DNA of 64,000 nucleotides from an uncultured Caldisericota bacterium. Its GTDB lineage: Bacteria > Caldisericota > Caldisericia > B22-G15. The first letter of the stretch is position 1; every line of letters begins with the position of its first letter. Under the pieces are notes generated by a model, which did not search any database, was not told the DNA's origin, and saw only the letters and a program-made list of their open reading frames with translations. This document shows, piece after piece, positions 2,781 to 59,649 of this stretch. The DNA lies in assembly GCA_964640995.1 (NCBI GenBank), contig CAZXJJ010000003.1, forward strand, positions 198,829 to 262,828. The letters are read 5' to 3'. The translations under genes and the position numbers were made by a program.

Positions 2781-2908
2781 TTTTCACCTCCATCAAAAAT
2801 TTCTTAATTATTATATCATTTTAAATTTACTAAATAATTGGTCCTTAAAATGGACAACTTTATTTAAAAATTGTAACTTTAAATAGTCAATATAATAAAA
2901 AATTTGTA

Positions 2909-2937
2909 TTGATTTTACCTCTTATTTATGATATAAA
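2909..2937 (+). promoter_or_regulatory. sigma-70-type promoter for the rpsB operon (-35 TTGATT, 17-nt spacer, -10 TATAAA), followed by a hairpin-containing leader
   Basis: TTGATT at 2909-2914, TATAAA at 2932-2937; leader hairpin CCTCTTG...CAAGAGG at about 2982-3005; strong RBS AAAGGAGG before ATG 3058. Confidence 0.45.
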
Positions 2938-3057
2938 GATTTAGATTTTAAAAAACACACGCTTCTGATTCTCTTCAAGGTGCCTCTTGTATTATCAAGA
3001 GGTGTGAAGAGAAGATGACGAAGCGGAGGAAAAAACCTAAAAGGAGGATAAAAAGAT

Positions 3058-3861: not shown

Positions 3862-3864
3862 TAT

Positions 3865-5175: not shown

Positions 5176-5177
5176 AT

Positions 5178-5729: not shown

Positions 5730-5738
5730 GGAAGAGAT

Positions 5739-16042: not shown

Positions 16043-17443
16043 ATGAAACTTAGATACCAAAGAAATATTAAAAGTTTTCTATTTTTACTTTTAATAATTT
16101 TTATTATGGCTAATTTCATAGTACTTGTTCCAAAATTCATTTTTGGAGATGAAGCATGGTCTGCAAAAATATCATCTATGGGTATACTCTCAGCAATAAA
16201 AAATTCATTAAATGATTTTCATCCTCCTTTATATCATATAGTTTTATCACTGTTTCTTTATTTATTTCCTAAAAATGAAATTTTATTAAAAATTTTATCC
16301 CTTGTTTTTGGAACATTAAGTTTATATATTGTTCTTTTCAAATTGAATGAATTTATCGGAGAAGAAGAGTCAAAATACCTTTCAATAGTAATTGTAGTTT
16401 CTCCATTCTTTCTTTATATTATAACCCTTGTTAGAATGTATTCCCTTGCATTATTTCTCTCATCACTTTCTCTTTTATATTTCTTTAAACTCCTAAAAGG
16501 TGAAAAAAAATTTAAAATCCATTTTATAATTTCAAACATTCTTATGATGCTAACACATCACTTAACAATACCTCTCTTTTTTATTGAAATTTTTTATTTT
16601 TTAATTAAGAAAAGGTGGGGTGCTTTAAAAACCTCAATTATTTGTGGAGTTCTTTATTTACCTTTCTCTTATATTTTTTTAATCCAACTTAAAAGAAGGT
16701 TTGAACTTTCGAGGGGATGGGGAAATATAACTTTTGAGTCATTTTTTTCTGACTTTTTCTCATTTTTACTCTTTAACTCAAAAGGAGTGTCAATTTTAAT
16801 ATTATCTATTTTTATTTTCCTTATAATATTTGGATTATTTAATCTCAAAAATGAAAATAAAATTTTTATGATTTTTTATTCTTCCACTTACTTTATAATG
16901 TTTCTTGTTATAACTAAATTATTTGGCTCACTTTATTTTCATTACATATCACTTATTATCATACCATCATACTATTTGTTAATAGAGGGTGCCTTTTTCT
17001 TTAAAAAATATAAAGAGAGAATCTTAATTTTTTTAATAATTTTACTTTTTGTTTTTACACCAACGAGTTTTATTAGGGGTTATCCAGAAATCTCTCAAAT
17101 AAAAAGTCTTTTAAATGGAAAAAAAGTTATTTTTTTAAATAGATATGAAATGTATAGATACACATTTAATATAAATGGAGATTTTAAATTCATAGCAGAT
17201 CTTCCACTGAATAATTTTACATTTGATAATTCAAAAAAAATTGAAAATGCAATAAATTTTATAGAAAATGAAGAAAAACCTTTTATTTTTGTTTACTCTC
17301 AAGTTGGAAGTGATTTTTTAAGTTTATATGACCCAAAAGGAAAAATTAAAAATGTTTTTGAAGAAAAAAGTTCATCAAAATTAACTTTTGGTATTTATTC
17401 GGATTTAACTCTTTTCATCTATTTTTTAGAACCTATGAAATAA
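16043..17443 (+). CDS. polytopic membrane glycosyltransferase, GT39/GT83 (ArnT/PMT-like)
   Basis: 466 aa, about 12 predicted TM helices; DEAWSA motif in first extracytoplasmic loop and HPPLY motif typical of GT-C mannosyl/aminoarabinosyl transferases. Confidence 0.6.
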   Translation: MKLRYQRNIKSFLFLLLIIFIMANFIVLVPKFIFGDEAWSAKISSMGILSAIKNSLNDFHPPLYHIVLSLFLYLFPKNEILLKILSLVFGTLSLYIVLFKLNEFIGEEESKYLSIVIVVSPFFLYIITLVRMYSLALFLSSLSLLYFFKLLKGEKKFKIHFIISNILMMLTHHLTIPLFFIEIFYFLIKKRWGALKTSIICGVLYLPFSYIFLIQLKRRFELSRGWGNITFESFFSDFFSFLLFNSKGVSILILSIFIFLIIFGLFNLKNENKIFMIFYSSTYFIMFLVITKLFGSLYFHYISLIIIPSYYLLIEGAFFFKKYKERILIFLIILLFVFTPTSFIRGYPEISQIKSLLNGKKVIFLNRYEMYRYTFNINGDFKFIADLPLNNFTFDNSKKIENAINFIENEEKPFIFVYSQVGSDFLSLYDPKGKIKNVFEEKSSSKLTFGIYSDLTLFIYFLEPMK

Positions 17444-17452
17444 TAATAGAAG

Positions 17453-18500
17453 TTAACTTGAAAATATAAGAGATAAAATTGCATAGATAGATACTTTTTT
17501 AATATAATATCCCCAAGAGACCCTTATTCCACTTTTTCCAAGAATTGATAAGGCGACAACATTTGCCGAAGCACCAATTGGTGTTCCATTTCCACCAAGT
17601 TTTGTTCCAAGAGATAAAGCCCATGCAAGAACTCCAAGTGGAATCCCTTTTAAAACACTCATATTTTTAATAACTGGAACCATTGAAAAGGGAAGTGGAA
17701 CATTATCTAAAATACTTGACAAGGAGCCTGAAATAAAAAAGGAATTGACTTGTAATAAGTTTTGGATTTTGAAAAATTTTCATTATTAAATTTGAAATTT
17801 GAGATAAAAATCCAACCTTTTCAAGAGAACCCAAAATTATAAATAGTCCTATAAAAATAAAAGTGTATCCCAATCAATTTTTTCCCAAATATTTCTAAAT
17901 CTATTTCCATTCAAAAATAATGCAAGAGAGGCTCCAATTAATCCTATAACTCCAACTGAGATGTTTATTGATTTATGAAAAACCAAAAGAATAAATCCAA
18001 GTGAAGTTCCAATTATAGCATTTGGTGGATCTCCAACCATTGTTGCGCTTTCTCCAATGTTTGATGAAACAATTTCAGTTAATATAAATGGAACAGGGTT
18101 AAAACCTAAAATTTTTGAAACCTCTATTGTTAAAGAAGAGATAAACATCATAACTGTGATACTGTCCTTAAAAGCGGAAAGAATGGTGGTTAATATTGAA
18201 AGTGAGATAAATAATAAAACCATATTTTTACGAAAATTTCTTACAATCCTATTTCCTATTATTTTAAAAAAGTTTACCTCTTTTAAAGTTATAACCAAAA
18301 AGTAAACATTCAAAAAAGAAGAGTTATTGCATCCTAATTTACAAATTAAAGTGCTTCACTTGGAGTTACAATTCTTAATAAAACAAGAACAGAGGATGTA
18401 AAAAAGACTATTATTGATCTTGGCAAAAGATCAAAAATTATCAAACAGTATGAAATGATAAAAATTAAAATTGAAATAATTTCATTTTTCATATTTTCTC
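17453..18500 (-). pseudogene. decayed anion/ion permease (ArsB/NhaD/CitMHS superfamily-like)
   Basis: Hydrophobic fragments 17453..17722 and 17849..18313 plus N-terminal piece to about 18490, separated by stops and frame changes. Confidence 0.45.
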
Positions 18501-32799: not shown

Positions 32800-35700
32800 A
32801 GTAATTTTTTGTTAATCTATCATTAAAGATTATAGTGTATCTATTGTTGTATTTATAGTCAATATCAAAGTGATATCTAATATCGCATACTCACCAAAAA
32901 ATGATATATCAGTACTCTTAAATCTTCTAAATGTCATCCAATCTGTATCAAATCCAATTAAAGGATTAATTACTCTCCACTTAGGAATTGACGATGATGC
33001 TAAGTCTAACAATACAATTGCACCTGTTTTTATGTTAAAAAAACAATTAACGAAAATTACAGTAAAACTTAAATTTTTTGTTAGAGTGATAGAAATAGGA
33101 TCTATTTTTGAATTTATATTTCCATACCATCCAATGAAATACCATCCAGAAGAAGGTGTAGCAGTAAGTGTTATTTGTGAATATTGATTATAAGGACCAG
33201 TTGGAGGATTTATTAATACTTTTCAATTGCCTAAAACGTTAACATTAATATTTGTAAAATATAGGTACTAAAGAAATGTCAGATTCAATCCTCACTCTTA
33301 TTCTATGACCCTCACTATATTCACCTGATAAACCTATTACATACAAATAATCTCCAATTTTTAATCACTCTTGGTAGAGTTCCAATATAACCATCAATAA
33401 ATATAATTATTTCACCACTTCCATCATCTATCTTACAAGTACTTGAATCGATTATTTTTGTAACATATCCTTCTATTTTTACAAGCCATCCTTCATTTTT
33501 TTTCTAAATTCAAATCTCCAGTTCTAAAATACTTTGGTTCATATACACTTGTCTATCCAATCCATAAGATATCCCTATAAAAATCATCAAATTTTAACTC
33601 TGTATCTCCATTATATTGATCGATTACACCTGTTAATTGTAAAATTACACCTTCTGGAATTATTTTATCTGTTGGAAAACTTCCAAAAACTGTAATACCT
33701 CCAGTCTCATCTTATAAATAGATTACATCAAAGAATTTTCCTGAACCAGATGTAACAACACCTCTTATAGTTACCCTCTCTCCCAATCTATCTGATACAT
33801 TATTATTATCCATATCTTTTCTTGCCTATCTAATAGGAGTCACTCTATTTATCTTACACAACAAATCAACAAGATTTAGTGTAAACGCTTCATTATTGCA
33901 ACCAGCCTCTCCCTCAATCCAATTTCCTGGTTCATAATTTGAAAATACCGCTCTTCCTAAAACCGCAACTCTTGCTCCATTTGGAAGAGTTTGAATTGAC
34001 ATAGCTGGCATATTTGAACCATTTGGATTCGAACGGTAACTATAAATATAATATCCTGCACCGACACGATTAACACCTGAAGGTGTATCGTCGTGATTAT
34101 AACTTGTTTGATTTGCATAAGCAATTTTGTGATACCATTACAGATTTTAGAATTTGTCTGAGGAAAATTATATAAACTAACTCCCCATAAATATCCATAA
34201 TTATTAATGTCATCATATATATTATCATGATTGATATTAATTCCTAATCCAAGGGAGGTGAGAAAATCATTATATCTTGTTAGATCTTCATTATAATTTG
34301 ATTTTGCTGTAAATAAAAGTGAACTGCCATTTTGAACAAAATTTCTTATTGCTTGTTTTCAGAATCTGATAAAAGTCTACTATCGGTTCCTCCTTGTGGA
34401 TATGTTATAACAAGTAAATCAACACTAAAAAAGTAATGATTCTGTTATTTCTTGATATGTATGTATAAATTCTTAACCATTGTGTGTAAACAAATCTGCA
34501 AATTCTGATAGATTATATAAACCGGTTCTAGATGTATAATCGCTTTTGTGATATCTATCAATTAAAATTCTCTTTCCTAAACTTTCAAGAACTCTAAATT
34601 TTATCTTTTGAGTATTATCATGTTCGGGATCTTCTTTAGGTCCTTCTAAAACAACATAAATTGTAAATAATCCAGAAGTTAGGGGTATCCAGTTTGTTGA
34701 TATGTTTAATTGTATTCCAGATGGCAAATCAACTGTTTTTGTGTCTATTAAAATTCCAGCAGCTCTTGGATCGCCTTCATAGAATTTAACTTGAAGATTT
34801 GAAAAAGATATTGACCCATAATTTTTTAATGTTGGGATAAGAGAAACTACTTTGTTTTGGAATATTGCCTTGGGCGAATAACTTAAAATAATGACTTTAA
34901 GATCAATATCAGATGGTGGTGTCCAAATTGGTGATGTAATTCCAACATCACCATCTTGTTCAACAACTCTTAAATAATACCTACAACTACCACCTTTATA
35001 AATTATTGTAAATTTTTTTTCAAATTTTTGTGAATTATTTGTCCAAGAATGAAGAACATGACCACTATTTGTTATAATTTCGACTAAAATTATTTTGTCA
35101 GAAGAGTCTGGATCATAAGTGTAAATTTCAAACTGAATATTTTCACCACTTTTAGCAGGAATAGTTGATCCCATCAAATAATTGTTTGCTTTAAAACTCA
35201 ATTTTATATTTCTATCTTCTGTACTATATGTTCTCATCATTTTAAATGCTTCAAGAACATCATTTTTGGTTAAGTTGTTTGCTATTATTCCAGTCAAATT
35301 ATTTGGAGGATAACCCCAGTTTTTTGTATGGTTATCTTGTCCATTTGTTGCTCCAACATGCCAACCTTTATCAAGCGCATAAATGTAAGCATTTTCTAAT
35401 CTTGCATAAGAATATTGTGGAGATCCATTTCCGACCTCTTGATGAGTTATTATATCATCAAGATCTTCATCATAAGCAAATCCATTAAAATAATGCTACA
35501 AAAACGCCATTTTGAGTAAAATTATTCGCTTGAGTTAATGCATCATTCCATTCATTCATATCTAACCAATTTGAATGGTCTGTAATTACAAGAAAATCTA
35601 TTTTAGCTACATCTCTTACATATGTAAATACATCAACCGGAGTTAAAGCACCATCTGAATATGAGGTGTGAGCATATGGAACTCCAAAATAAAAGTTTTC

Positions 35701-37100
35701 AGTGGTTAGTGGTTCAATAATATAAAAATAAAAATTAAAAATTTTTATTTTTCCTGATAAATCTTTTACACCAATTTCCACTTTATGTTTCCCTAATGAT
35801 AAATCTGTTGAAGGAGTGTATGTTATTTGTGTCTCAGTTATTGTTGCATTATTTGTAAAATCTATATTATCTAATTTTAAATAAATGGTGCTTATATCAA
35901 TTCCACTTGAAGGTTCTGGATCAAAATATTTTGTCGAGATTGTTGGTCTTTTATTGTAATTTGATGAGAATCTTGAAGGTGAGAGATCATAAATAATAGG
36001 TTGTATGGTTTCTCCTTCAACTATTGGACCACTTTTTAAAGATGTAGGATCTCCTGTTGCATCCACTCTATAAATATCTTTTGCCATAAAGTAGTATTGA
36101 GTAATTACCTAATTATAGTGTTATCGAAAATTTATAAAGCCTACCATCCAAATAATTTGTATCAAGATAGTCGACTCACTCATAGAAAATGGACTTCCAT
36201 TTATTTCAAATCCATCCTTTAAAATATGAACCTTTGGAAAACCACTTTGAGGAGGATTGTTGTCTTGATCGAGATATTTGATTCTATACTCAAAATTTGT
36301 CGTTATATTGCCTATCTCTGGTTCAACTCCACTATTTTCATAGCCAGATTCTCCAGTCCAATCTAATGTTGGAGGACTATTGATTATTGCATTTATTGTT
36401 ATCCCAGATGTAGTTTGACCAGCACTAACACAAATATTTTCAACGACACCATTAGTGTAGACAGTATTTGTTGTTGGATCCAACAATTCAATTGTATAAT
36501 TACATCCTGCAGGTGCTGCTATTTTAAAATATCCAGCACTTCCTGTATAACCTTCTCTAACACCAATTATCTTCTGTTATATGAATACCAACAATTATGT
36601 TATTTAAATCTTTTACAACAACAATTTTGTTTTGTGCAGGATCATTTCCTAAATATGCATATCCTTCGATCCAAACTCCTAATGTTCCACTGCCTGTGCT
36701 ACTCATATTTAATTGTAGTATGGAGATATTAGCAGAATCTCTGTTTGAAGTTCCTTCTCTAACTCTTGCTTGATAGTAAATTGATTTAGACCAGTCAAAA
36801 TTTGCATTTCCAGTTATTGAATTTCTGTTTACTTTTGTAACAATCCATCCAGACCATTTTCCATTTGAATCAACATTAAAAGGTCATGAACTTGCCCAAG
36901 CCGTTGTATCAATGCCCTAAGTATATGGAGTTGTTCCGACATTTGCCCACCAAATTGCATATGTAAAATCGGTTGCAGGATACAATGGTAGTGCAAAACC
37001 AACTCTACTTTTAATTCTATGGGGAATTGTTTGTTAAAGTACACCATTTACAGATACGAAGACTGCAATAGGCGTTCCGTCACCAGGGGTTGTGGTTCCG
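32800..37100 (-). pseudogene. heavily decayed large secreted multi-domain protein with PHP-type metallophosphoesterase domain and Ig/CARDB-like repeats
   Basis: Pieces 36121..36486, 35485..36087 (PHP motif VPYAHTSYSDG...LVITDH), 34473..35297 and further fragments to about 32800 read as one protein; interrupted by many TAA/TAG/TGA stops and frameshifts; no start codon or signal peptide. Confidence 0.6.
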
Positions 37101-37236
37101 GATGTACAATCAATATTTTTAAATAATTCTCTAATTCTTATTATAATAGATAAAATTTTAGGTTGGATTTGGAATTAATTAAACAAATTTTAAAGTTTAT
37201 GGTTTGTTAAAATATTAAAATTAACAAAAATAAAAA

Positions 37237-37258
37237 AGCTGGGAGAATTCTCCCAGCT
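37237..37258. terminator. perfect 22-nt palindrome AGCTGGGAGAATTCTCCCAGCT flanked by A-run and T-run
   Basis: Immediately 3' of the 2227-aa gene on the minus strand; second 12-bp-stem hairpin CCACAGGGATCC...GGATCCCTGTGG at 37283-37320. Confidence 0.6.
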
Positions 37259-37329
37259 TTCAAGTCCTATCACCCTAAATCCCCACAGGGATCCCATAAA
37301 TAGGATCCCTGTGGTTCCTGTAAGTTTCT

Positions 37330-40300
37330 TTAGTTATACCAGAGGAATTCGATGGTTACTAATTGATAGAGTGAGTTCCAGTCAACTTTAGCACCAAAGG
37401 CTTCTGCAACAAATCTTAATGGTACAAATGTTCTGCCATTTACAATTACTGGTGCGACATCAAGAGTTACGACTTGACCGTTGACTATTGCTGTTGGGTT
37501 GCCTACCTGTAAACCAATCGTTGTGACAACTGATTTAAGGCTTAATGTTATATTAATTCCTTTTGTCTCTGGAATCCATTCAACTTGAGCACCGAATGCC
37601 TCTGCGATGAATCTTAGTGGTACCATTGTTCTTCCATCCTTGATGAATGGAGCTACTTCAAGTGGTTCACTGAATACTCCATTGACCTTTGGAGTAGGAT
37701 TACCAATCTGGAGTTCAAGTGTTGTCTTTCTGAATACTGTAACTGATGTCTCTATCTTCTTTGTATTTCCAACAGCATCTGTTGCAACTATTGTAACTTT
37801 GTTAACTCCATAAACAAGTGTGAGTTCGATTTCCCAATCATCATTTGCAACTGTTGCTGGTTTATCATTAACCATAACCTTTGCTCCTACTTCAACATAA
37901 CCTGTTAGTTTAACCTTTGTTGATGTGATTGGTCCGACTGGAAGTATAACTGTTACTTCTGGTGGAATTGTATCTAGAACAACTTTAACCATCTTTTCTG
38001 TCTTGTTTCCAGACTTATCTTTTGCAACAACAACTATCTCATTTTCACCTTCTTTAAGAGTTACATCTGCTGAGAATTTACCATCAGCATCAACTGTTGC
38101 CACATTTCCATTAACTATAACTGTTGGTACACCAGCATTATCTGATGCTATACCAGTAATTTTAACTGTTGGTTTATTTGTTGGGGATACTGGTTTATCA
38201 ACAGTAAGTTCTGGAGCAATTTTATCTGCACCGACAACAACTACTACTTTTCCTGGTATATATCCATCTCTTGATGCTGAAACAAGAATTTCACCTGCTT
38301 CTGTTGGTTTAACCATGAATTTAGCAACTCCATTTGCATCTGTTACACCAGAAAGATTCACTCCTGCACCATAGAGTGTAACTTCAGCACCTGCAACTGG
38401 GAAGTTAGGACCTGCTTCAACAACTCTAACTGTTACTTCAGTCTCTACACCAAAAACGAGTTCTCCTTTGATTGTTAGATCAAGACCCTTTGCTGAATCA
38501 AAGTATGGAAGTGGCCAGCTTGAATTTCCAACTGGTGGTGAAATTCTTGTTAATTCTCTCGCATCTGCGAAGTCATGTCCAAGTGGGCTTACCACGATAT
38601 TATTTGGACATACATAATCAGAGGTAAAGTCTGGTGCTCTATCATCATATGTCCAATAGAGTGGCTCACCCGCTGAATTGAATTTTTTCCACCATGGCCA
38701 CAACATATCATGATACCAGAAGAAATCATCACCATAGTGGTTAACTACTGCAAGATAAGCAACTTTTGTTCCTGTTCCACGAGGTCTAAAGTTAAGTGTT
38801 GCCATTGAATTTTCATCAAGTGTTCCATATGCCCAAACTTCAACATTTCCAACAAGTTGAACTTGAATTCCAGGTCTTGCTGGAAGATCTCTATTATCTG
38901 CAGGAAGTGCATTGACAAGAAGATGATTCTCAAGTCCATAAGTTAAGTCATAGTAATTTCGATTGAATATATCTTTGGTTAGTTCTGTTCTTGTTTCACT
39001 ATTTAGAACTTTGAATTTTAAGAAGTCTATATCGACTTTTTTATTAGCGTTTGCATACCAATCTAACCATAAAGCTCTATCATTATTAAGATCTGCATTA
39101 TTATATAGATTCTTTCCTAAGATTCCAGATAGAGCTCCAATATCTGTTGTAATTACAAAGAATGTTGCTTTACCATTTTCATCAAGAGGAATAGTATCAG
39201 CTAGGGTAATTAAGCATTCATCACCCGAGAGATCTGGGAATAGTTGTCCCCAATTCCACTTATCGTAGTTGTAATCTTTGTTGTATATTGCGTTGTTTGT
39301 CCATGTTCCTGTATCTGGTGGATTTGGCACTCCATCAACGACAGTATCACCAAATATACTGAATTTTGTGAAGCCATAACCAAATTCTGGCTCTCTTGGT
39401 TCATAGAAACTATAAACTCTTCCAGCTTCATCATAACTTGTTGCAACCAAGTTAAAGTAATGAGGTGTATATGCAACATATGGCAAGAATCCAGCATATA
39501 CTCCTTCTACTTCAGGTCTACAATCTTCTGCGGGTTTTCCAGGTCCACCTATTGGTTTGCCATTACAATCAGTTGCAGTAACAGTAACTTTATAGAATCT
39601 TAAATCACCAGCAGTCATAACAAAGTCTGGGTCACCTGGGACTGTATGAACTGTTCCATTTGGATCTTCAAGGTTTACAATCTCCCATTTAACTCTTGGT
39701 AGTTCCACTACAACTTCAACCTCTCCAAAACGTTTTCTATCTGGTGTGAAAACACTTACCGTGAATTTACCTTCATCATTAGCAGTGAATCCAAGGAATT
39801 TATAAATACCCTTTGCCTTTTCAGCAAAACTTCTTGTTGCGATTACACTTGAATTCCATTTATTTTTATCAACAGTTGAGTTTAGTAAAACTCTTACCCA
39901 ATTGTTCTTTCCGTCACTTGGTCTAAAGAGCCAATTTTGAATATTTGCATCTGTAACTGTTATTCCTCCAATTCCAACTGATAAGTTAACAGGTTTTCCA
40001 TCTTTATCAGTAACAACGAATGTTAAAGGTTCACTACCATTTAATTCTGGAACAACACCTGCAGTTAAGCATGGTCTTGTTTCGATTCTAAGGTCTTTTC
40101 TTCCAACTACTCTTAACTCTCTTTGACCAGCGAGATAAACTTCCCAATCTTCAATGTTTCCTGTTAATCTATTTGCAACTCTTGGATTAATACCATCGTC
40201 ACCATAAACGTATGAAGTTAATCTAACTGGAATAACTTCGTCATCAGCTAGTATTCCATCTGCATTGAAATCAAATCCAATCTCGTTGATTTGTGCACCA

Positions 40301-43300
40301 AAGGCGTCTGTCAAACTAAATATGTATTCGCCCTGGTTTATATTTGTCGTTAATGCGGTGTAACTTATAAATCCACCACTCCATGCTCTTGTTGCAATGT
40401 CATAGGTACCAATAATTTCTGTTTCATATTGTTTATATGAAATCCTTCCATCACCAGTAAAGTCAAAACCATTGTATACAGGGCTTAAGACAGGTGTGTT
40501 GTTTGTTGTATCATTGTTTACATTTAATCTTGTTCCACCTTTTGGAGTTTGACCCGAAATCCAACCATCACCAACACCAAATCTTACTCCTGTTGTTGGT
40601 CTTACTGGATGAAGAATTCCTCTATCATGCCACAAGAACATAACTACGTTATTAGCAAGTGGTTGTTTTGTTGTAATTGTTGTTTCACCATATGGAGTTG
40701 TTACATTATCAAATGGATAAACTTTTGCTGTTACTTTAAGAGTATTATCTGCATCAACTTCAAGGTCACTCTTATCTGTTACGAGTTCAACAGCGTGTAC
40801 TGGGATATTTTCTGGCGTGTCCATACAAGAGGTGCAATATTTATAAGTAACTTTACTTGTTCCATAAGTTGCAGTTACTTTAATATAACCTGGTCCTGTT
40901 GGTATAATTCCTTGCAATAACACGACGTTATTAAATATCCAACCATCTTCGAATTCGAAGTTGTTGATAAAGTAGCCACCTGGGGCTTCTAAGAGTGTTG
41001 AGGAGAAAGATGTAACTGTCCATCTATCAAAGTGTCTATATGATTTTGGTAAGTTTGGAGTAGTATTGTATGTGTATGCACCATTAAATGGTCCAACCAT
41101 GAATACAGGTTGTCCATCTTTACTTGCCTTTATTCCCTCAACAATTACTGAATCAGGTTTGAGATGATCACCATCCTTATCCTTGAGAATGAATCTTATT
41201 GTGTAGTTTGTTAATGGATAATACTCAGTACCAAGTTTCCAAAATACTTCTCTAAATTGAGCGTGTCTTGAATTAAATCCGTTTGTTAGACCAACAACTG
41301 CTGATGCACTTACTGGTCCACTATTAGGTTGTCCTTGCCAGTTATATCCCCAACCAGAACCTGGAAGGTTAGATTGACCACCTGGATAACTTCTTAATTC
41401 CATTGTTAAGTTTCTTAATATCCACGGGAATTGATTTGTTACCGGTCCGTATGGAGGATATGGATTTCCAAATTGAGAATATCTTAATCCGTTATCGACA
41501 ATTTCAAAATCAGCAAAGTTTATATCATAAATCTTTGCTGTTTTTACAGTAACAGGAGTTGTTGTCATGTAATCTATTAATTGGAAATCAAGATTTTGTG
41601 GATAAACAGGGTAGTCATACCAGTAGGCATTTCTTGTATCTAAATTTTGCTCTTGAATGTAGGTATTTGATAGAGGATATAAAATATTCCAGTAATTAGT
41701 TGTTGTAAATACTGTGAATTTAATTTCATCGCACTCTTTTGTAGGTGGCTTAACTGGAACCATAACCATACTATTAACTATTACGACTGGAAGTGGATAA
41801 TCAACTATTGTGTAGATTGTGTTGTTTCCAACAACGGTTTCTCCGTTATCAGGTATTCCATTTTTTAATATATTATCAGAGAATGTCATTGCAGAGACAC
41901 TTATTGGTGTGGAATTTAATATCTCATTTGGACTCCTCCAATTGTAAACATTATATGGCGCTTGGTCATTCATCAACCAAAGATAATCAACTGATGAACC
42001 TTTCTGTAAGATATATAAATTATTATATGTATCCCTTACAAGAGCATACCATAAGATTCCACCACCACTTGCATTTACATATGCATAAATATTTGTATCT
42101 TGGGCAGGATTAAATGGTCCAAATGGATCATCAACATCTATTAAATTATTACTATTTTCAATGTAGATTCCAAAGTTTGGAAATCTTTGATCAAGAAATG
42201 AAATACATTCTCTATCACCTCTTGCAATAATTACTTCTGGTTCAATTGGATAGAATTTTGAAAACCAGCAATCATACATATCTCTATACACACCATCTAC
42301 AAATATATAATCTGGTTCATTGTTCTCAACATAAGCATCTGCAGGGAACGGAATGGTTACATTTCCATATACACCATCTACTGGTCCAATAGCATCATAA
42401 ATTTCGGCATAGGCAGATATTCTTACTTGTGGAAAATCATGTTTCATTGTTTTTGCAAGTGAACCTCTCCATGGAGTAATTTCAAATCTATAGCTTTTTT
42501 GTGTTGCACTAAGATAGAAATCTCCGCCTGGAAGAACTGTTTCATATCCTTCTACATATGAAGGAGTTGGAGGATTTCCTAAATTAACTGGATGATAGCC
42601 TGGAACTTGTGCTAAAACGTGAACTTTTGCTCCTGGTGGCAATACACAATCTTCTGGTAATGAAACAATAACAGTGTATGTTTGTTCGACTCTTAGTCTA
42701 TCAACATCTTTACCTCCAGGATATGTTTCAAAAACCTTAACATCAAGAGTTATTTCTCCAGGAAGAACTGGTATATCAAAACCTCTGAAATCACCGTATA
42801 TTAATGTTAGTCCAGGATAAAGAAGTGGAGTTTGAGATTGATAACTATCATTAGCAACTACTGTATCTCCTGGGGAGATAACACCACCACCATCAATATC
42901 AATTACGTTTGTATCAGCGATTATTAATTCTGGTGATTGCGAAACTGAAGGTAGTAATTGAATTATATGTTTTACCTTAAAGAATAGTTCACCTTCAACA
43001 GGCTCTAAAACAAATTCATTATTATCAATGACATAGTCTGAATCTGTATCTAGGATATAGAGCTTATTACCATAAAGATCTGTTACTCTTATTACTTGCC
43101 CTTGATTTAGTAGATCACCATAGTTTCCATTAACTTGTCCAAACCATTGCTCTGCAGCAACCTCTGGATCGTAATCATCCTTGGTGTTGTTTGCAATTAA
43201 AAGAGACTGAGCGTTTAAAATATTATTATAGCCGTTATCAAACCAAATCTCAAGATCTAAAAATTCTCTGCTTGTTAATGTTATATTGTGGAAAACAGTT

Positions 43301-44013
43301 GTTGCAATTCCATGAGCAACTGACCATTGTAGTTGCTGAGAAATTGGAGTTAAAATGTCTAAACCTGTTCCTTTTGATAATCTTGCCGCAATAAGAGGAT
43401 TTCCTGGGAGATTTTGTGTATTATACGCTGGTTCCATATCAGATTGAACTGCAATGTCATAAACAACTCTACTTCCACAACAAGACGCTCTTAAAACCTC
43501 AAATAAAATTAATCCATCTCCTTGATTTAAATTATTATTATTATTATCTAAGAAATTCAAAACAAAATTTCTTCCACCAATTGTGATTGTCCATCTTGAT
43601 AATGTAGTTCCAAGTGGGAATGGACCATACCTTCTTGTATTGTTTGTAGCCGAAGGTGTTTCAAAAGTAGTATCTGGATCTATGAATAAATGATTTTGTT
43701 GACCATCACTTGCAATTATTGCATAGTATCTATCCATTAATCTTGAACCTGAAGCATCAGAAACAACTGTCAAAAAGAAATCTGTACCTAAACTAGGTGT
43801 GAAACCTGTCACAAACCATAAGAAAGAATATGGTCTTAAAGTAGAATTAACATCACCTCTTCGAGAGGTATAATCATATGTTACCGCCCACAATGCATTA
43901 ACGATCATTGTTGCGTTTCTTGTTGTTTGGGCATAAACTATCTTGTTACTTCTTAGTGGAACAAAGGAGAGGACCATTAATGCAATTAATATAAATGATA
44001 AAATTTTACGCAT
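37330..44013 (-). CDS. giant secreted cell-surface protein (2227 aa) with two C-terminal copper-amine-oxidase-N-terminal-like domains; candidate S-layer/surface-array protein
   Basis: Signal peptide MRKILSFILIALMVLSFVPL...AQ; Asn/Thr/Tyr/Gly/Val-rich, low Lys/Glu unlike the proteome; Ig-like repeats; terminal duplicated ...NGRTxVPLRFIAEAFGA.V.W... domains; no enzymatic motif recognised. Confidence 0.8.
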   Translation of the reverse strand: MRKILSFILIALMVLSFVPLRSNKIVYAQTTRNATMIVNALWAVTYDYTSRRGDVNSTLRPYSFLWFVTGFTPSLGTDFFLTVVSDASGSRLMDRYYAIIASDGQQNHLFIDPDTTFETPSATNNTRRYGPFPLGTTLSRWTITIGGRNFVLNFLDNNNNNLNQGDGLILFEVLRASCCGSRVVYDIAVQSDMEPAYNTQNLPGNPLIAARLSKGTGLDILTPISQQLQWSVAHGIATTVFHNITLTSREFLDLEIWFDNGYNNILNAQSLLIANNTKDDYDPEVAAEQWFGQVNGNYGDLLNQGQVIRVTDLYGNKLYILDTDSDYVIDNNEFVLEPVEGELFFKVKHIIQLLPSVSQSPELIIADTNVIDIDGGGVISPGDTVVANDSYQSQTPLLYPGLTLIYGDFRGFDIPVLPGEITLDVKVFETYPGGKDVDRLRVEQTYTVIVSLPEDCVLPPGAKVHVLAQVPGYHPVNLGNPPTPSYVEGYETVLPGGDFYLSATQKSYRFEITPWRGSLAKTMKHDFPQVRISAYAEIYDAIGPVDGVYGNVTIPFPADAYVENNEPDYIFVDGVYRDMYDCWFSKFYPIEPEVIIARGDRECISFLDQRFPNFGIYIENSNNLIDVDDPFGPFNPAQDTNIYAYVNASGGGILWYALVRDTYNNLYILQKGSSVDYLWLMNDQAPYNVYNWRSPNEILNSTPISVSAMTFSDNILKNGIPDNGETVVGNNTIYTIVDYPLPVVIVNSMVMVPVKPPTKECDEIKFTVFTTTNYWNILYPLSNTYIQEQNLDTRNAYWYDYPVYPQNLDFQLIDYMTTTPVTVKTAKIYDINFADFEIVDNGLRYSQFGNPYPPYGPVTNQFPWILRNLTMELRSYPGGQSNLPGSGWGYNWQGQPNSGPVSASAVVGLTNGFNSRHAQFREVFWKLGTEYYPLTNYTIRFILKDKDGDHLKPDSVIVEGIKASKDGQPVFMVGPFNGAYTYNTTPNLPKSYRHFDRWTVTSFSSTLLEAPGGYFINNFEFEDGWIFNNVVLLQGIIPTGPGYIKVTATYGTSKVTYKYCTSCMDTPENIPVHAVELVTDKSDLEVDADNTLKVTAKVYPFDNVTTPYGETTITTKQPLANNVVMFLWHDRGILHPVRPTTGVRFGVGDGWISGQTPKGGTRLNVNNDTTNNTPVLSPVYNGFDFTGDGRISYKQYETEIIGTYDIATRAWSGGFISYTALTTNINQGEYIFSLTDAFGAQINEIGFDFNADGILADDEVIPVRLTSYVYGDDGINPRVANRLTGNIEDWEVYLAGQRELRVVGRKDLRIETRPCLTAGVVPELNGSEPLTFVVTDKDGKPVNLSVGIGGITVTDANIQNWLFRPSDGKNNWVRVLLNSTVDKNKWNSSVIATRSFAEKAKGIYKFLGFTANDEGKFTVSVFTPDRKRFGEVEVVVELPRVKWEIVNLEDPNGTVHTVPGDPDFVMTAGDLRFYKVTVTATDCNGKPIGGPGKPAEDCRPEVEGVYAGFLPYVAYTPHYFNLVATSYDEAGRVYSFYEPREPEFGYGFTKFSIFGDTVVDGVPNPPDTGTWTNNAIYNKDYNYDKWNWGQLFPDLSGDECLITLADTIPLDENGKATFFVITTDIGALSGILGKNLYNNADLNNDRALWLDWYANANKKVDIDFLKFKVLNSETRTELTKDIFNRNYYDLTYGLENHLLVNALPADNRDLPARPGIQVQLVGNVEVWAYGTLDENSMATLNFRPRGTGTKVAYLAVVNHYGDDFFWYHDMLWPWWKKFNSAGEPLYWTYDDRAPDFTSDYVCPNNIVVSPLGHDFADARELTRISPPVGNSSWPLPYFDSAKGLDLTIKGELVFGVETEVTVRVVEAGPNFPVAGAEVTLYGAGVNLSGVTDANGVAKFMVKPTEAGEILVSASRDGYIPGKVVVVVGADKIAPELTVDKPVSPTNKPTVKITGIASDNAGVPTVIVNGNVATVDADGKFSADVTLKEGENEIVVVAKDKSGNKTEKMVKVVLDTIPPEVTVILPVGPITSTKVKLTGYVEVGAKVMVNDKPATVANDDWEIELTLVYGVNKVTIVATDAVGNTKKIETSVTVFRKTTLELQIGNPTPKVNGVFSEPLEVAPFIKDGRTMVPLRFIAEAFGAQVEWIPETKGINITLSLKSVVTTIGLQVGNPTAIVNGQVVTLDVAPVIVNGRTFVPLRFVAEAFGAKVDWNSLYQLVTIEFLWYN

Positions 44014-44420
44014 AAGCGTAAACCTCCTTTAAATTAAAAATTTTTGAGGAATCCGTCCTCACGCGGGGTTAGGGTCTTTAAAAACTCTTTAAGTCTTTTA
44101 TCCTCCCTAACCTTTAAGATAAAAGACTTTTTCCTTTTCACCTTCTAATACCACCTCCTCTCTTTAAAAGTTTTGAGTTTGAGAAATTTTTAGCGTCTCC
44201 TACCCACTCTGGTATAACCCAGCGGTTCAGAGTTACTGCCATACTCAAACTCCAAATATTAGTATGCAAATTTAGTGCCAAAATTTGATAAGATAAAATT
44301 AAGGCTTTTTTAAATAAAAAAAGAGCTTCATAAAAAATTTTTTGTGAAAAATTTATACATATTGTAAAAATTCCTTTTATAAATCATAAAATTTTACTTG
44401 TTACCAATTTTCACAACTTT
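44014..44420 (-). promoter_or_regulatory. long structured 5' leader/promoter region of the giant surface-protein gene
   Basis: About 450 bp non-coding; GC-rich inverted repeats embedded in AT-rich DNA (GGTTAGGG...CCCTAACC; GAGGA-CGGAT-TCCTC just upstream of the AAGGAGG RBS; GAGTTTGAGTA...TACTCAAACTC enclosing a GC-rich core). Confidence 0.4.
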
Positions 44421-44471
44421 GTGTAAATATAACTCAAGATTAAATTAGTGTATTAATAACAAAATAAAAAA

Positions 44472-44495
44472 AGCCCTGGAATTTCTCCCAGGGCT
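44472..44495 (-). terminator. intrinsic terminator of the S8 protease gene (AGCCCTGG-AATTTCTC-CCAGGGCT + T7 on minus strand)
   Basis: 8-bp stem, A7/T7 flanks; sequence related to the 37237 and 32738 hairpins. Confidence 0.6.
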
Positions 44496-44515
44496 TAGAT
44501 TTTTAAAATAATTTT

Positions 44516-47812: not shown

Positions 47813-47933
47813 AACTCCTCCAATTTTTATAATTTAGATACATTATAAACCTTTAATTGTTTTTGTCAAGATATTTCCAAATTTAGATATTATCATAAAC
47901 AAAATTTTGATTGTTATAGACAAAATTATAACT

Positions 47934-50363
47934 TTAAATAATAAGGTTAATTGTAGAATTTTCTGCAAAAGCAAGGTAAGTTCCAACTCCCCCCTCTTCA
48001 ATTCCATCAATGAGTTCTTCTCTTTTTATTCCCATTAAATCCATTGTCATACTGCAAGCAATAATTTTTCCACCATTTTTAATGAAAGTTTCAAGAAGTT
48101 CATCTGGTTGCATAACATTATATTTTTTCATGATTCCCTTGATCATTTTTGTTCCAATTCCTAACATGTTCATTTTAGATAAAGTCAATTTTTTTGCTCC
48201 TCTTGGCATCATCATTCCAAACATTTTTTCAACAAAACTCTTTTTAACTTGAACCTTAAAATCCTTTCTTAAAACATTCAAACCCCAAAATGTACAAAAA
48301 ATTGAAACTTTTTTACCCATAGAAAGAGCCCCATTTCCAATAATCAAAGATGCCATAACTTTATCAAAATCATTTGAAAATAGAATTATTGAAACTGAAT
48401 CACTTCTTTGTTTTTGAGTTATTTTTTCTAAAACATCTTGAGGTTTCTCTTTTTTAAGAAGTGCTTTGATTGCTTTTCCTTTTTCAAGATTAAGAAGTGA
48501 AAGGCCTTTGCTTTGAGCATAAGATTTTATATCATTATAAAATCCTGGATCAGTTGCTTCAACTTCAATTAAAGTTCCTTCACTAACCTTATCAAGAGTC
48601 TCTTTAAGCTTCATAAGTGGTCCTGGACAAGAAAGTCCTCTAGCATCAACTTTAACTATCTCTTCACCTTTTTTTATTTCACTCATTTCTTTTTTAAACT
48701 CTAACTCTTTTTTTGTGCTTTTTTCTCCTCCAAAACAAGAGGAGTAAAATGTTAAACCACCTGAAAGATATTTTGCATTAAATCCATTTTCTAGAAGAAG
48801 TCTTAAAGCATTATATGCTCTTTGACCTTTTCCACAGCACACAATATAAAGTTTATTTTTTTCGAGTTCATTTAATCTATTCCTTAATTCTGTCAAAGGA
48901 ATGTTAATTGAATTTTCGAGTTTGCTTGCAAAGGTCTCTTCTTTTTCTCTTATATCAAGAAGCGCTGCTCCTTTTTTAACCAACTCATCAATCTCGAAAA
49001 TCGAAACTTTTGGAGCAATACCTGAAAGATCATCTTCAGCCATAGTTCCAATAATGTTTAGAGGATTTTTTGCATGCCCATACTGAGGAGAATATGCAAA
49101 ATCGATATCCTTTAGTTCTGTTATTTTTGAATTAAATCTCATTGCTGTTGCAAGTGAGTTTATAATTGTATCTACTCCATCAAAGCCTACTGCTTGCCCT
49201 CCTAATATTTTTCCAGTTTTTGCTTCATAAAAAACTTTTATATAAAGTGGATATGCATCTGGGAAGTAACCTGCATGATTTAAAGTTGAGAGACATTCAA
49301 ATTTATAATTGATTCCTAATTTTTCCAAAGTTTGGGAGTTTAATCCAGTTGAAGCACCAGTTATATTAAAAATTTTAACAATTGCTGTTCCCATTGAACC
49401 AAGATATTTTGAGTTTATTCCGCAAATATTATCCGCTGCAACTCTTGCCTGTTTGTGAGTTGGACCTGCAAGAGGAATTCTTGTTTTTGTTCCTGAAACA
49501 AAATTTACTATCTCAACCGCATCTCCAATTGCAAAAATATTTGGTTCAGATGTTCTCATAAATTCATCTACCAAAATTCCACCTGTTTCACCAATCAAAA
49601 GACCTGCATCTTTCGCAAGAGTGATTTCGGGTCTTACACCAATTGAAAAAATTACAAAATCACTTGATATTCCCACTCCATTTTCTAAAACTGTTTCTAT
49701 TTTTTCGTCTTTTTCTTTAAACTCTTTTACAGCAGAACCTAAAAAAAGATCTACCTCATTTAATTCAATTTCATCATGAATGTAAGATATTAAATCTTTA
49801 TCAAGAAAAGATAAAACCTGAGGAAGTGCTTCAACTAAATTAACCTTAACCCCTTTTCTTACCAAATTTTCTGTAACCTCAATTCCAATAAATCCTCCTC
49901 CAACAACCGTTGCTTCTTTTTTTCCACTATCTATTTGCTCCACAATTTTATCTGCATCTCCGATTGTTCTTAAAGTGAAAATTTTTGAAGATTCAATCCC
50001 TGGAATTTTTGGTTTTAAAGGTGAAGCACCAGGAGATAAAACTAAGAAGTCATAATACTCTTCAAACTCTTCTTGAGTTTCCAAATTTTTAACTAAAACT
50101 TTTTTCTCTTGAGGGAAAATTTTTATTACCTCATGCCTTGTGTATGCATCTATGTTATATTTTTTTTTCATATCATCTGGAGTTGTAACAAAAAGCCTCT
50201 CTCTTGGAACAAGACCACCAATATAATATGGAATTCCACAATTTGCATAAGATATAAAATAATCTCTCTCATAAATTTTAATCTCTGCATCACTCTTTAA
50301 CCTTCTTATTCTCGTTGCACAAGTTGCTCCACCAGCAACACCACCAACTATTATTACTTTCAT
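47934..50363 (-). CDS. CoA-disulfide reductase fused to rhodanese, TusA-like and DsrE-like domains
   Basis: 809 aa; N-terminal FAD/NAD(P) oxidoreductase with single redox Cys (SYANCGIPYY), rhodanese Cys (CCGKGQR), TusA CPxP motif (LSCPGPL), C-terminal DsrE/DsrF-like domain. Confidence 0.8.
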   Translation of the reverse strand: MKVIIVGGVAGGATCATRIRRLKSDAEIKIYERDYFISYANCGIPYYIGGLVPRERLFVTTPDDMKKKYNIDAYTRHEVIKIFPQEKKVLVKNLETQEEFEEYYDFLVLSPGASPLKPKIPGIESSKIFTLRTIGDADKIVEQIDSGKKEATVVGGGFIGIEVTENLVRKGVKVNLVEALPQVLSFLDKDLISYIHDEIELNEVDLFLGSAVKEFKEKDEKIETVLENGVGISSDFVIFSIGVRPEITLAKDAGLLIGETGGILVDEFMRTSEPNIFAIGDAVEIVNFVSGTKTRIPLAGPTHKQARVAADNICGINSKYLGSMGTAIVKIFNITGASTGLNSQTLEKLGINYKFECLSTLNHAGYFPDAYPLYIKVFYEAKTGKILGGQAVGFDGVDTIINSLATAMRFNSKITELKDIDFAYSPQYGHAKNPLNIIGTMAEDDLSGIAPKVSIFEIDELVKKGAALLDIREKEETFASKLENSINIPLTELRNRLNELEKNKLYIVCCGKGQRAYNALRLLLENGFNAKYLSGGLTFYSSCFGGEKSTKKELEFKKEMSEIKKGEEIVKVDARGLSCPGPLMKLKETLDKVSEGTLIEVEATDPGFYNDIKSYAQSKGLSLLNLEKGKAIKALLKKEKPQDVLEKITQKQRSDSVSIILFSNDFDKVMASLIIGNGALSMGKKVSIFCTFWGLNVLRKDFKVQVKKSFVEKMFGMMMPRGAKKLTLSKMNMLGIGTKMIKGIMKKYNVMQPDELLETFIKNGGKIIACSMTMDLMGIKREELIDGIEEGGVGTYLAFAENSTINLII

Positions 50364-58119: not shown

Positions 58120-58300
58120 GTAAAATTATTTTGGTCAGGTGTAGGGAAGAGGGTGAAAATCCCTCGCTGCCCCGCAACTGTGAGTGGGTATTGATCTAAT
58201 CCTTAAGCCACTGGGAAACTGGGAAGGCTTAAAGAAAAGTTACAGCACCCACAAGCCAGGAGACCTGCCTGATCAAATTTTACCTTCCGCCTTCGCGGGA
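58120..58300 (+). ncRNA. cobalamin (adenosylcobalamin) riboswitch
   Basis: Core GGGAAGAGGGTGAAAATCCCTCGCTGCCCCGCAACTGTGAG and B12 box AGCCAGGAGACCTGCC (58254-58269); 3' hairpin CCTTCCGCC-TTCG-CGGGAAGG abutting the AAGGAGG RBS of the downstream gene. Confidence 0.8.
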
Positions 58301-58314
58301 AGGAAAGGAGGAGT

Positions 58315-59649
58315 ATGATGAAAAAATTTTTAAAAATCTCACTTTTATCAATTCTTTTATTTGTTTTATTATTTCCTACATTTTTCCATCCCCAAAAAAA
58401 TATTTTCTCATTTAGTGTAAATTTTTCTTTTAAGATCAATTCAAATCTTTTTCAATTAAATGAAAATACCTTCCAATTCACACAAAACCCAATTGTTAAA
58501 AATGGAAAAACCTTTGTTCCTGTTAGAGATTTCCTTAATGCTCTTGAAATAGAATATAAATGGGTTGATTCAGAAAAAAGCATAAACTTTGAGTATGATG
58601 CAAAGAAAGTTAAAATCTATTTAAAAGAGAATTTTTACACAATCAATGACTCAAAAAGAAATTTTAAATTTAGGCCATTTATTTTTAAAGATTTAACTTA
58701 TGTTTCTGTAAGAGATTTAGGAGAAATTTTCAATTTAAATGTTATTTGGAATGAAAAAGAGAAAAAAGTTACTCTTTCAGGAAATATATATCCCAAAATT
58801 ACAGTTAAAGATGATTTAAACAATGTTGTTACTTTTTATGAAAAACCAAAAAGGATTGTCTCTCTTGCACCATCAAATACAGAAATTTTGTTTTCTTTGG
58901 GATTAAATGATGAAATAGTTGGTGTTACTGAGTTCTGTGATTATCCAACTGAAGCCAAAAAGAAAGAGAAAATTGGTGGTTTTATAAATCCAAATCTAGA
59001 AAAAATTTACTCCCTTAAACCAGATTTAGTTTTAGGAATTAGGGGCAATCCAATTGATCTATTCATGAATCTTAAAAAATTAAAAATAAAATCACTTGCT
59101 TTTGACCCAAAAAATGTTGATGAACTATTTAAATTAATTTTAACAATAGGAAAGGTTGTTGATAAAAGAGATGAAGCAAGAAATCTTGTTGAAGTTCTTT
59201 CTGAAAAAAGAATGAAAATCATCGAAGAAGCGAGAAAGTTCAAAAAGAAAAGAGTTTATGTAGAGATTTGGAATAGTCCTTATATGTCTGTTGGTAAAAA
59301 TACTTATATTAATGATTTAATTGAGGGGGTCGGAGGAATAAATATCGCAAGCAAAGCAACTGGAGATTGGCCAATTCTTTCACAAGAGTTCATAATAAAT
59401 GAAAATCCAGAAGTTATTATAATTGCTTATATGGGGCAAACAATAGATGATGTTCTAAAAAGATCTGGATGGGAAAAAATTGATGCTGTTAAAAATAGAA
59501 GGATTTATATATTTGAAAATCAAGACCTCATCTTTAGATTAGGACCTAGAATAATTGATGGTATGGAGGAACTTTTTAGGTTGATTCATAAAGATGAACT
59601 ATCAAAATTTTCTGAGGAGACGAATGTCTCCTCCCCTCTAATCAGATGA
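58315..59649 (+). CDS. BtuF/FhuD-type (cluster A) cobalamin/siderophore ABC substrate-binding protein with N-terminal copper-amine-oxidase-N-like domain
   Basis: 444 aa; signal peptide without lipobox; residues about 60-160 resemble the C-terminal domains of the 2227-aa protein (NGKTFVPVRDFLNALE..); C-terminal about 280 aa periplasmic binding fold. Confidence 0.7.
   Translation: MMKKFLKISLLSILLFVLLFPTFFHPQKNIFSFSVNFSFKINSNLFQLNENTFQFTQNPIVKNGKTFVPVRDFLNALEIEYKWVDSEKSINFEYDAKKVKIYLKENFYTINDSKRNFKFRPFIFKDLTYVSVRDLGEIFNLNVIWNEKEKKVTLSGNIYPKITVKDDLNNVVTFYEKPKRIVSLAPSNTEILFSLGLNDEIVGVTEFCDYPTEAKKKEKIGGFINPNLEKIYSLKPDLVLGIRGNPIDLFMNLKKLKIKSLAFDPKNVDELFKLILTIGKVVDKRDEARNLVEVLSEKRMKIIEEARKFKKKRVYVEIWNSPYMSVGKNTYINDLIEGVGGINIASKATGDWPILSQEFIINENPEVIIIAYMGQTIDDVLKRSGWEKIDAVKNRRIYIFENQDLIFRLGPRIIDGMEELFRLIHKDELSKFSEETNVSSPLIR

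Follow-up and report, generated by a model that had tools for sequence, protein, structure and literature searches.

The largest open reading frame (ORF) in a 64,000-nucleotide (nt) stretch of DNA from an uncultured Caldisericota bacterium (contig CAZXJJ010000003.1; hereafter the window) encodes a giant protein of 2227 amino acids (aa). This protein is best explained as a Sec-secreted, non-enzymatic, calcium-binding, all-beta structural protein of the cell envelope, and as the conserved, syntenic representative of a family of giant stalk-domain proteins specific to Caldisericota. It is a candidate for the main surface-layer (S-layer) or sheath-like protein of the cell, with presumed abundance and lattice formation, and for this role the chances appear about even. 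The sigma-54-type promoter of the gene, together with a leader RNA that carries an upstream ORF, is the most original element of the locus and was previously undescribed. The original prediction, made by a model from the letters of the window, had recognised a secreted giant protein with immunoglobulin (Ig)-like domains and a C-terminus of the CuAO-N type, and this description is supported by the Pfam matches and the predicted signal peptide. The coordinates of all features are collected in Table 1. Related loci are designated by L-numbers and related family proteins by P-numbers.

Secretion, composition and expression signals

The size of the protein, its rank as the largest ORF of the window and the presence of a signal peptide were confirmed as predicted. 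The signal peptide, MRKILSFILIALMVLSFVPLRSNKIVYA with Q as the residue following the cleavage site, is the sole strongly hydrophobic segment of the chain; the protein thus has the layout of an S-layer protein, secreted and with no further membrane span. Lys (4.2 vs 9.6%), Glu (4.6 vs 8.1%) and Ile (6.1 vs 11.7%) are scarcer in the giant protein than in the window's other ORFs, in agreement with the Lys/Glu-poor composition noticed at the outset, and Trp, Pro, Thr, Val, Asp and Asn are over-represented; Cys amounts to 0.6%. With an isoelectric point (pI) of 4.7, the protein has a mature mass of 244 kDa. Such a composition, weakly acidic, rich in Thr, Val, Asp, Asn and Gly and with few Lys and Cys, is of the S-layer type.

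Modification of the protein by glycosyltransferases, which the original prediction had also suggested, found no support. The GT2 gene (12033-12695) and the gene of a PMT_2-like protein (16043-17443), the latter a borderline match with 26.2 bits vs a cut-off of 26.1, are both more than 20 kb away from the giant gene, unlinked to it and outside the conserved locus. The N-x-S/T sequons are not enriched, 25 having been counted vs about 20 estimated from the composition.

The features counted for high expression are an own transcription unit between terminators, a perfect Shine-Dalgarno (SD) sequence, the structured leader and the codon bias. Terminator-like hairpins bracket the gene on both sides, as had been predicted, and the long structured leader of this unit was found to be real, structured and conserved. 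The share of C-ending codons in two-fold codon families is 0.276 for the giant gene, among the highest of the window (typically about 0.12), and comparable values were obtained for frr (0.279) and rpsB (0.219), the codon-bias reference being tiny. S-layer genes are known for long structured 5' untranslated regions (UTRs) and for codon bias (PMC3666127).

Family, distribution and conservation

The search for the same protein in related genomes, proposed with the original prediction, did yield homologues. A narrower, word-indexed search with aa 1-1866 as query gave 21 proteins, among them full-length ones at 41-78% identity, and all the named ones are from "Caldisericia bacterium". Word-indexed searches with the profiles A5 and A7 added little. 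The family-wide scan, in which a HMMER profile of aa 717-1866 was run against 1.84 billion cluster representatives, gave 69 clusters including giants of 2000-3673 aa at about 30% identity; every named member again belongs to Caldisericia, and no relative was found in the GTDB genomes searched with the core profile. Judged from these sequences, the family is confined to Caldisericia wherever names exist. The remote members share the layout of a long unassigned N-terminal part followed by CarboxypepD_reg-like, Glucodextran_B and Cu_amine_oxidN1 domains. Current annotations of the family do not go beyond "stalk domain-containing" or hypothetical. No paper on the family was found, and the literature on S-layer proteins or the envelope of Caldisericia gave nothing specific.

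The mean pairwise identity among 15 orthologues climbs along the protein, from 47% (aa 29-400) and 54% (aa 401-716) through 60-66% in the core to 82-88% in the Ig spacers and the stalk. In P0012 and P0020 the core is kept at 54-64%, and the N-terminal part is only 32-35% identical, with about 500 extra residues. The orthologous locus is syntenic in the five contexts compared, being flanked by a CoA-disulfide-reductase fusion and, at the other end, by a small ORF, FloA and NfeD. The family has paralogues, since P0035 and P0042/P0108 coexist in one 2.17-Mb genome and giants occur in tandem in L026. In this last locus (L026, 1-15985), from a Caldisericia genome of higher guanine + cytosine (GC) content, the tandem giants measure 2996 and 2994 aa, and a sigma-70 gene of the extracytoplasmic function (ECF) type and genes of stalk-domain proteins are located nearby.

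Fold of the core and the N-terminal region

No Pfam or NCBIfam match was obtained for aa 1-1850, even in scans of the individual members at E<=1, apart from noise-level hints of EF-hand and dockerin. Neither the whole-protein profile nor the N-terminal profile matched a PDB entry by sequence, and lenient thresholds brought no match of the N-terminal profile in either Pfam or PDB. A first AlphaFold run on aa 1060-1935 with 21 sequences gave a mean predicted local distance difference test (pLDDT) of 51 and was set aside, except for the CarboxypepD_reg-like domain, which was well predicted even in this poor model. After remote relatives had been added, aa 740-1750 with 53 sequences gave a model with a pLDDT of 77.1, a predicted template modelling score (pTM) of 0.73 and 395 residues above 90, consisting almost wholly of beta strands. 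The high pTM over 1011 residues suggests that the domains of the model are held in a fixed arrangement and are not strung like beads.

A Foldseek comparison of this model with the PDB returned only multi-beta-sandwich proteins and no enzyme fold. The S-layer proteins of Nitrosopumilus maritimus (8c8o, E=6.6e-7) and Bacillus anthracis (EA1, 8opr, E=2.4e-5) were among the matches, as were mastigonemes and the adhesin FdeC, and a viral structure library contributed strings of Big-1, BIG2, FN3 and PKD domains. All the Foldseek matches are weak in superposition, with template modelling (TM) scores of 0.10-0.15 and identities of 8-10%, so that the likeness of the core is one of building style and not of homology. 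The label "unknown fold" given by the original prediction does not hold for aa 740-1750, where the domains are ordinary beta sandwiches. An EF-hand-type loop, DFNADGILADDE, is located in the core at aa 1248-1259, and G1246, D1248 and E1259 are invariant throughout the family; as a sequence motif, it fits a structural role of calcium.

The top Foldseek matches were the alpha-2-macroglobulins of E. coli and human, CD109 and the complement components C3, C4 and C5 (E down to 7e-10), and 4rtd, 5a42, 4ziq and 6tav were matched with probabilities of 0.97-1.0 and a TM-score of about 0.1. The core thus shares with this class an array of macroglobulin (MG)-type beta sandwiches, and the gene of an S8 protease adjoins the giant gene; the two observations together raise the idea of an alpha-2-macroglobulin-like protease trap acting with or against that protease. 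At TM-scores and identities as low as those given above, the matches express a generic likeness among MG/Ig arrays, and the S8 neighbour is missing from most orthologous loci; a trap of this kind is highly improbable. As to the identity itself, alpha-2-macroglobulin is excluded by the absence of a CxEQ motif from the whole protein and of a helical region of the size of a thioester domain from the models of aa 740-1935, and no A2M-family Pfam match was found.

The original prediction that no catalytic family can be recognised was borne out by the blank Pfam, NCBIfam and PDB searches of the N-terminal part and by the model of aa 740-1750 without an enzyme fold; confident homology of the N-terminal region to a known enzyme, named beforehand as the finding that would overturn the surface-protein reading, did not appear in the profile searches of Pfam and PDB. 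A surface-anchored enzyme degrading polysaccharides or proteins, with its catalytic module in the N-terminal 700 aa and the remainder as a stalk, would find room in aa 29-740, which have no assigned fold and contain conserved cysteines (CC 178-179, C456, C582, C603, C761) and many invariant Asp, Glu and His residues, and stalk domains are often carried by wall hydrolases (PMC4137172). Against it stand the N-terminal profile, which matches nothing at lenient thresholds, and the fact that this region is the least conserved one and is replaced in variants, which is unusual for a catalytic core. We regard an enzyme as improbable and a structural role of the giant protein as the better explanation.

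The C-terminal stalk and its proposed anchoring role

The last 127 aa form a single Cu_amine_oxidN1 domain of Pfam length (PF07833, 167.6 bits vs a gathering threshold of 24.2), in which aa 2110-2220 correspond to model positions 2-107. When the halves were scanned separately, each of about 60 aa matched model positions of approximately 45-107. The two CuAO-N-like copies described in the original prediction are hence to be replaced by one stalk domain of two half-repeats. At 88% identity this domain is the most conserved region of the giant protein.

A second stalk-domain protein is encoded in the window at 58120-59649 (+), where a cobalamin riboswitch (103 bits) precedes the gene of a Peripla_BP_2 solute-binding protein (58315-59649). 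The signal peptide of this riboswitch-controlled protein has no lipobox cysteine and is followed by an N-terminal Cu_amine_oxidN1 domain, and in the source organism the stalk domain seems to stand in for the lipid anchoring of binding proteins. At other Caldisericia loci it is carried by pyrroloquinoline quinone (PQQ) propellers, PEGA/cohesin proteins and small Ig proteins. Its occurrence on a solute-binding protein without lipobox and on many secreted proteins fits a general anchor module, and Cu_amine_oxidN1 has been treated as a wall-binding module (PMC4137172; bioRxiv 10.64898/2026.09.23.753664). The conserved stalk and the Ig spacers of the giant protein constitute a candidate wall-anchoring module, for which wall binding is suggested by the domain distribution and the literature. 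Since a binding protein has to remain close to its permease in the membrane, we infer that proteins are tethered by the stalk domain to a component of the wall near the membrane, the variable N-terminal part of the giant protein pointing outwards.

Promoter and leader RNA

The 270 nt upstream of the giant start codon are far better conserved as DNA than the protein is. The conserved block begins with TGGCACTAAATTTGCA, which has the sigma-54 spacing TGGCAC-N5-TTGCW with GG at -24 and GC at -12. It is the sole exact TGGCAY-N5-TTGCW match in the window, and each related locus has exactly one such site. A metagenome scan with a pattern comprising the promoter and the start of the leader gave 13 more loci, and all 12 of those retaining downstream sequence encode a giant homologue beginning with MRKIL. 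The same kind of scan of GTDB gave one Caldisericota metagenome-assembled genome and three chance matches. The remote paralogues in higher-GC Caldisericia are without the sigma-54 promoter and the leader.

Further upstream, TGTGTAAAA..TTTnACA-like motifs recur 70-170 nt from the promoter in all orthologous loci, and the recurring TGT-N11-ACA motifs may be enhancer sites; the evidence is weak, because the upstream region is AT-rich. In L024, the 2938-aa P0113 is directly preceded, in the same orientation, by genes at 2794-5916 for a PAS histidine kinase and a response regulator of the NtrC type (Sigma54_activat); the 85-nt gap before P0113 contains no TGGCAC-N5-TTGC site.

The secondary structure of the leader was assessed across 15 distinct leader sequences. 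In this set 99.3% of the alignment cells are paired and 15 base pairs show compensatory double changes. The observed values were reached in none of 500 shuffles, and slid controls gave 30-55% pairing. The z-score of the minimum free energy for the single sequence is -2.99. No Rfam 15 family matches the leader at the gathering threshold or at E<=10, apart from sub-threshold noise. RNAalifold also proposes a pairing of AACCCC (44070-44065) with the main SD sequence, which would compete with the pseudoknot; being invariant, it is without support from covariation. In one subclade (L006, L009, L010, L011, L013, L017, L018) an insertion of about 84 nt is located between P4 and the 3' arm of the pseudoknot, and it forms a hairpin of its own with compensatory changes (GGTAT..ATACC vs GGTGT..ACACC), the upstream ORF staying in frame.

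The frame of the upstream ORF is open in all 15 leaders, with 0-1 stops vs 1-9 in the other two frames, and it is maintained across five linker lengths, including that with the 84-nt insertion, so that the ORF measures 35-73 codons. Its stop codon, in 10 of the 15 leaders, is a TAA that overlaps the main ATGCGTAA. The peptide is basic and follows the pattern VKKxKFLILKVREDKK...LTPxEDGFLKN. The conserved peptide stretches coincide with RNA helices, so that translation of the upstream ORF is no more than plausible. In L001 (9868-10008) it was called as a 46-aa gene by the JGI gene caller.

Functional interpretation

The following arrangement is proposed. After cleavage of the signal peptide, the C-terminal Cu_amine_oxidN1 domain would bind a conserved component of the wall near the cytoplasmic membrane, the three Ig-like domains serving as a spacer. 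The rigid array of beta sandwiches, about 1100 aa long, would form the body, and the fast-evolving N-terminal part of about 700 aa would face the outside; many copies would most likely pack into the outermost protein coat, an S-layer or a sheath-like array. Transcription would start from the sigma-54-type promoter, and because sigma-54 promoters confer activator-dependent expression it would require an activator ATPase. The leader of about 240 nt, with its pseudoknot and an upstream ORF reaching to the main start, probably serves to stabilise the mRNA and to gate or couple translation. A further-reaching reading makes the giant protein the building block of the outermost layer (S-layer or sheath) of Caldisericota, a deep-branching and little-known phylum, under the rule of a cassette of sigma-54 promoter, pseudoknotted leader and translated upstream ORF, by which its output would be coupled to an external or envelope-stress signal; in this complete form we consider it rather unlikely.

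The surface-array function put forward in the original prediction stands in part. In its favour, the modelled part folds like known S-layer and MG-array proteins, and the identity gradient, the codon bias and the precedent of Swol_0133 (see below) point the same way. Several observations weigh against it. S-layer genes are usually constitutive, whereas a sigma-54-type promoter implies conditional expression, and neither rpoN nor an activator gene was found within the window. Few S-layer proteins would be as large, since 244 kDa lies at the top of their usual range. The codon share of tsf is 0.047, without the bias of the giant gene, the reference set being tiny. The stalk anchor is common to many proteins and so is not S-layer-specific, and aa 29-740, outside the model, could hide a catalytic or lectin module. 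Genomes of related lineages contain several paralogous giants, some in tandem, an arrangement that is also compatible with a set of adhesins. How the envelope of Caldisericota is built is itself debated, either as that of a diderm without lipopolysaccharide or as something else (PMC7203096).

The paralogues also speak for a different function, that of a giant adhesin or surface fibril which forms no lattice, is anchored by the stalk, carries a variable binding head at its N-terminus and mediates sigma-54-controlled attachment to particles, partner cells or filament neighbours. The tandem Ig-like array of the core recalls FdeC and the Big-domain proteins among the fold matches, the N-terminal head is variable or swapped, and lectin-like or cadherin-like modules occur in some relatives (PF06439 in P0113, PF12733 in P0015). 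Sigma-54 has been linked to the control of the bacterial exterior and commonly governs conditional surface structures (PMC3162934). Typical giant adhesins are highly repetitive, whereas a self-search with hidden Markov models of 120-aa tiles detected no convincing internal repeats in the N-terminal 1850 aa, repeats being present only among the C-terminal Ig and stalk units; the tandem repeats of one domain seen in adhesins of the Bap, SiiE or LapA kind were thus not found. The high pTM, moreover, suggests a compact body, and there is exactly one conserved syntenic orthologue, with hallmarks of high expression. An adhesin is possible on these grounds, though somewhat unlikely, and the structural coat protein remains the reading that we favour.

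Comparison with known systems

The coat protein proposed here has a close precedent in Swol_0133 of Syntrophomonas wolfei, a predicted S-layer protein which is the most abundant protein of the membrane fraction and ends in a C-terminal Cu_amine_oxidN1 domain (PMC3582634). Both proteins are secreted and have a pI of 4.7, and Swol_0133 contains no other recognisable domain (PMC3582634). It differs in its mass (78 kDa vs 244 kDa here) and in its origin from Firmicutes, sigma-54 control is not known for it, and its sequence showed no recognisable relationship with the N-terminal part or the core of the giant protein.

The S-layer protein of N. maritimus (8c8o/8c8l) and EA1 (8opr), both calcium-dependent and acidic, resemble the giant protein as chains of beta sandwiches; with a TM-score of about 0.1, no sequence similarity and other anchors (SLH in EA1), they share with it a style of building and not ancestry. 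The bacterial and eukaryotic MG arrays of alpha-2-macroglobulin and complement (4rtd, 5a42) are likewise long series of mutually packed MG-type beta sandwiches; the giant protein is set apart from them by the lack of a thioester domain and motif, of a bait region and of A2M signatures in Pfam. Bacillus and Thermotogae with their SLH proteins, and C. difficile with SlpA and the CWB2 Cwp family, offer systems in which one non-covalent anchor is shared by the coat and accessory proteins. The stalk domain of Caldisericia would play the same shared-anchor role with a different anchor fold.

With regard to the leader, the STAB-SD of cryIIIA is an SD-like stabiliser of mRNA. In the slpA 5' UTR of Lactobacillus (PMC3666127), a long leader with stable hairpins is found as in the giant gene. 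What slpA, cryIIIA and the present leader also have in common is a strong SD-like element at a long distance before the start codon; in the known cases these features are linked to a long mRNA half-life and very high expression. The leader of the giant gene differs from both in that it follows a sigma-54-type promoter, contains a pseudoknot supported by covariation and a conserved ORF reaching to the main start, and belongs to no Rfam family.

The data do not overturn current concepts; they describe a lineage-specific case of a familiar theme, the Ig-like-domain surface protein with a reusable anchor. Caldisericota have one cultured species, and naming a candidate dominant surface protein and its anchor gives a handle on this phylum for cryo-electron tomography, surface proteomics and studies of phage receptors. 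The stalk domain, as a putative phylum-wide anchor with a role comparable to that of SLH or CWB2, could guide the annotation of many "hypothetical" proteins. The sigma-54 promoter and the leader with its upstream ORF form a compact regulatory element outside Rfam.

Table 1. Features of the giant gene, its product and the adjoining genes (window coordinates)
Feature	Position	Strand	Remarks
Giant protein gene	37330..44013	-	2227 codons + stop, ATG start; SD AAAGGAGG at 44030-44023; full-length homologues at 41-78% identity
Signal peptide, aa 1-28	43930..44013	-	Predicted cleavage between VYA and Q; MRKIL...VxA kept in all orthologues
Variable N-terminal ectodomain, aa 29-716	41866..43929	-	No Pfam or PDB match; identity 47-54%; replaced/expanded in P0012, P0020
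Family-defining core, aa 717-1866	38416..41865	-	Predicted packed beta-sandwich (Ig/FN3/MG-like) array; AlphaFold, Foldseek, profile with 69 clusters
CarboxypepD_reg/Big_1-like beta-sandwich domain, aa 1860-1931	38221..38436	-	Pfam E=3.6e-5, below curated cut-off
Two Glucodextran_B / Big_13 Ig-like domains, ~aa 1934-2095	37729..38214	-	Spacer; Pfam E=6.4e-19 (whole protein), 1.2e-23 (excised fragment)
Cu_amine_oxidN1 stalk domain, aa 2098-2227	37333..37722	-	Two half-repeats; putative envelope anchor; Pfam E=8.9e-50
Intrinsic terminator of giant gene	37234..37261	-	12-bp stem, 6 GC pairs, then T-run
Sigma-54-type promoter TGGCACTAAATTTGCA	44265..44280	-	GG-N10-GC (-24/-12); exact consensus match; invariant, same position in 18/18 related loci
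Candidate enhancer site 1 TGTGAAAATTGGTAACA	44399..44415	-	TGT-N11-ACA; ~128 nt upstream of -24; weak evidence
Candidate enhancer site 2 TGTATAAATTTTTCACA	44343..44359	-	TGT-N11-ACA; ~72 nt upstream of -24; weak evidence
Conserved structured 5' leader RNA, ~240 nt	44014..44253	-	Five helices + pseudoknot; covariation
Leader P1	44252-44244 / 44183-44175	-	
Leader P2	44240-44229 / 44200-44192	-	
Leader P3	44225-44218 / 44212-44204	-	
Leader P4	44127-44116 / 44104-44093	-	
Leader pseudoknot	44112-44105 / 44074-44067	-	
Leader P5	44060-44056 / 44050-44046	-	
Upstream ORF in leader	44034..44141	-	GTG start, 35 codons here; preceded by perfect SD AGGAGGTG at 44159-44152
Terminator of upstream S8 gene	44471..44496	-	Hairpin; sets giant gene apart as own transcription unit
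Secreted S8 subtilase with PA domain, 1098 aa	44516..47812	-	Pfam Peptidase_S8 1e-53, PA 1.3e-15; own terminator
Decayed pseudogene of second large secreted protein (CARDB/Flg_new_2, ~1540 aa)	32813..37147	-	7 collinear tblastn pieces, shifting frames, 43-84% identity

Neighbouring genes

The secreted S8 subtilase directly upstream, to which the original prediction had drawn attention, is indeed present, and the link was found to be clade-specific. The S8 gene precedes the giant gene in the closest clade only (the window, L001, L008, L012, L013/L016 and L015) and is absent in L002, L004 and L005, which rules out the protease as a general or obligatory partner. Upstream of the S8 gene, at 47842-47869 (-), there is a perfect sigma-70 consensus (TTGACA-16-TATAAT, 12/12), in contrast to the sigma-54 type of the giant gene.

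On the downstream side, L001, L004 and L005 have an intact CARDB/Flg_new_2 gene of about 1540 aa directly after the giant gene, and L002 lacks it. In the window, the ORFs 36121-36486, 35485-36087 and 34473-35297 are pieces of its decayed copy. A second broken gene is probably represented by 17453-18313 (-), where two short ORFs (89 and 154 aa) match different parts of an ArsB/CitMHS-type transporter. The stretch at 13.5-16.0 kb has 23.6% GC and almost no ORFs, and the source genome may carry several pseudogenes.

The conserved upstream boundary of the locus is formed by a gene at 47934-50363 (-), whose 809-aa product unites CoA-disulfide reductase, rhodanese, TusA and DsrE domains and probably acts in sulfur trafficking. 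This role agrees with the respiration of sulfur compounds reported for Caldisericota.

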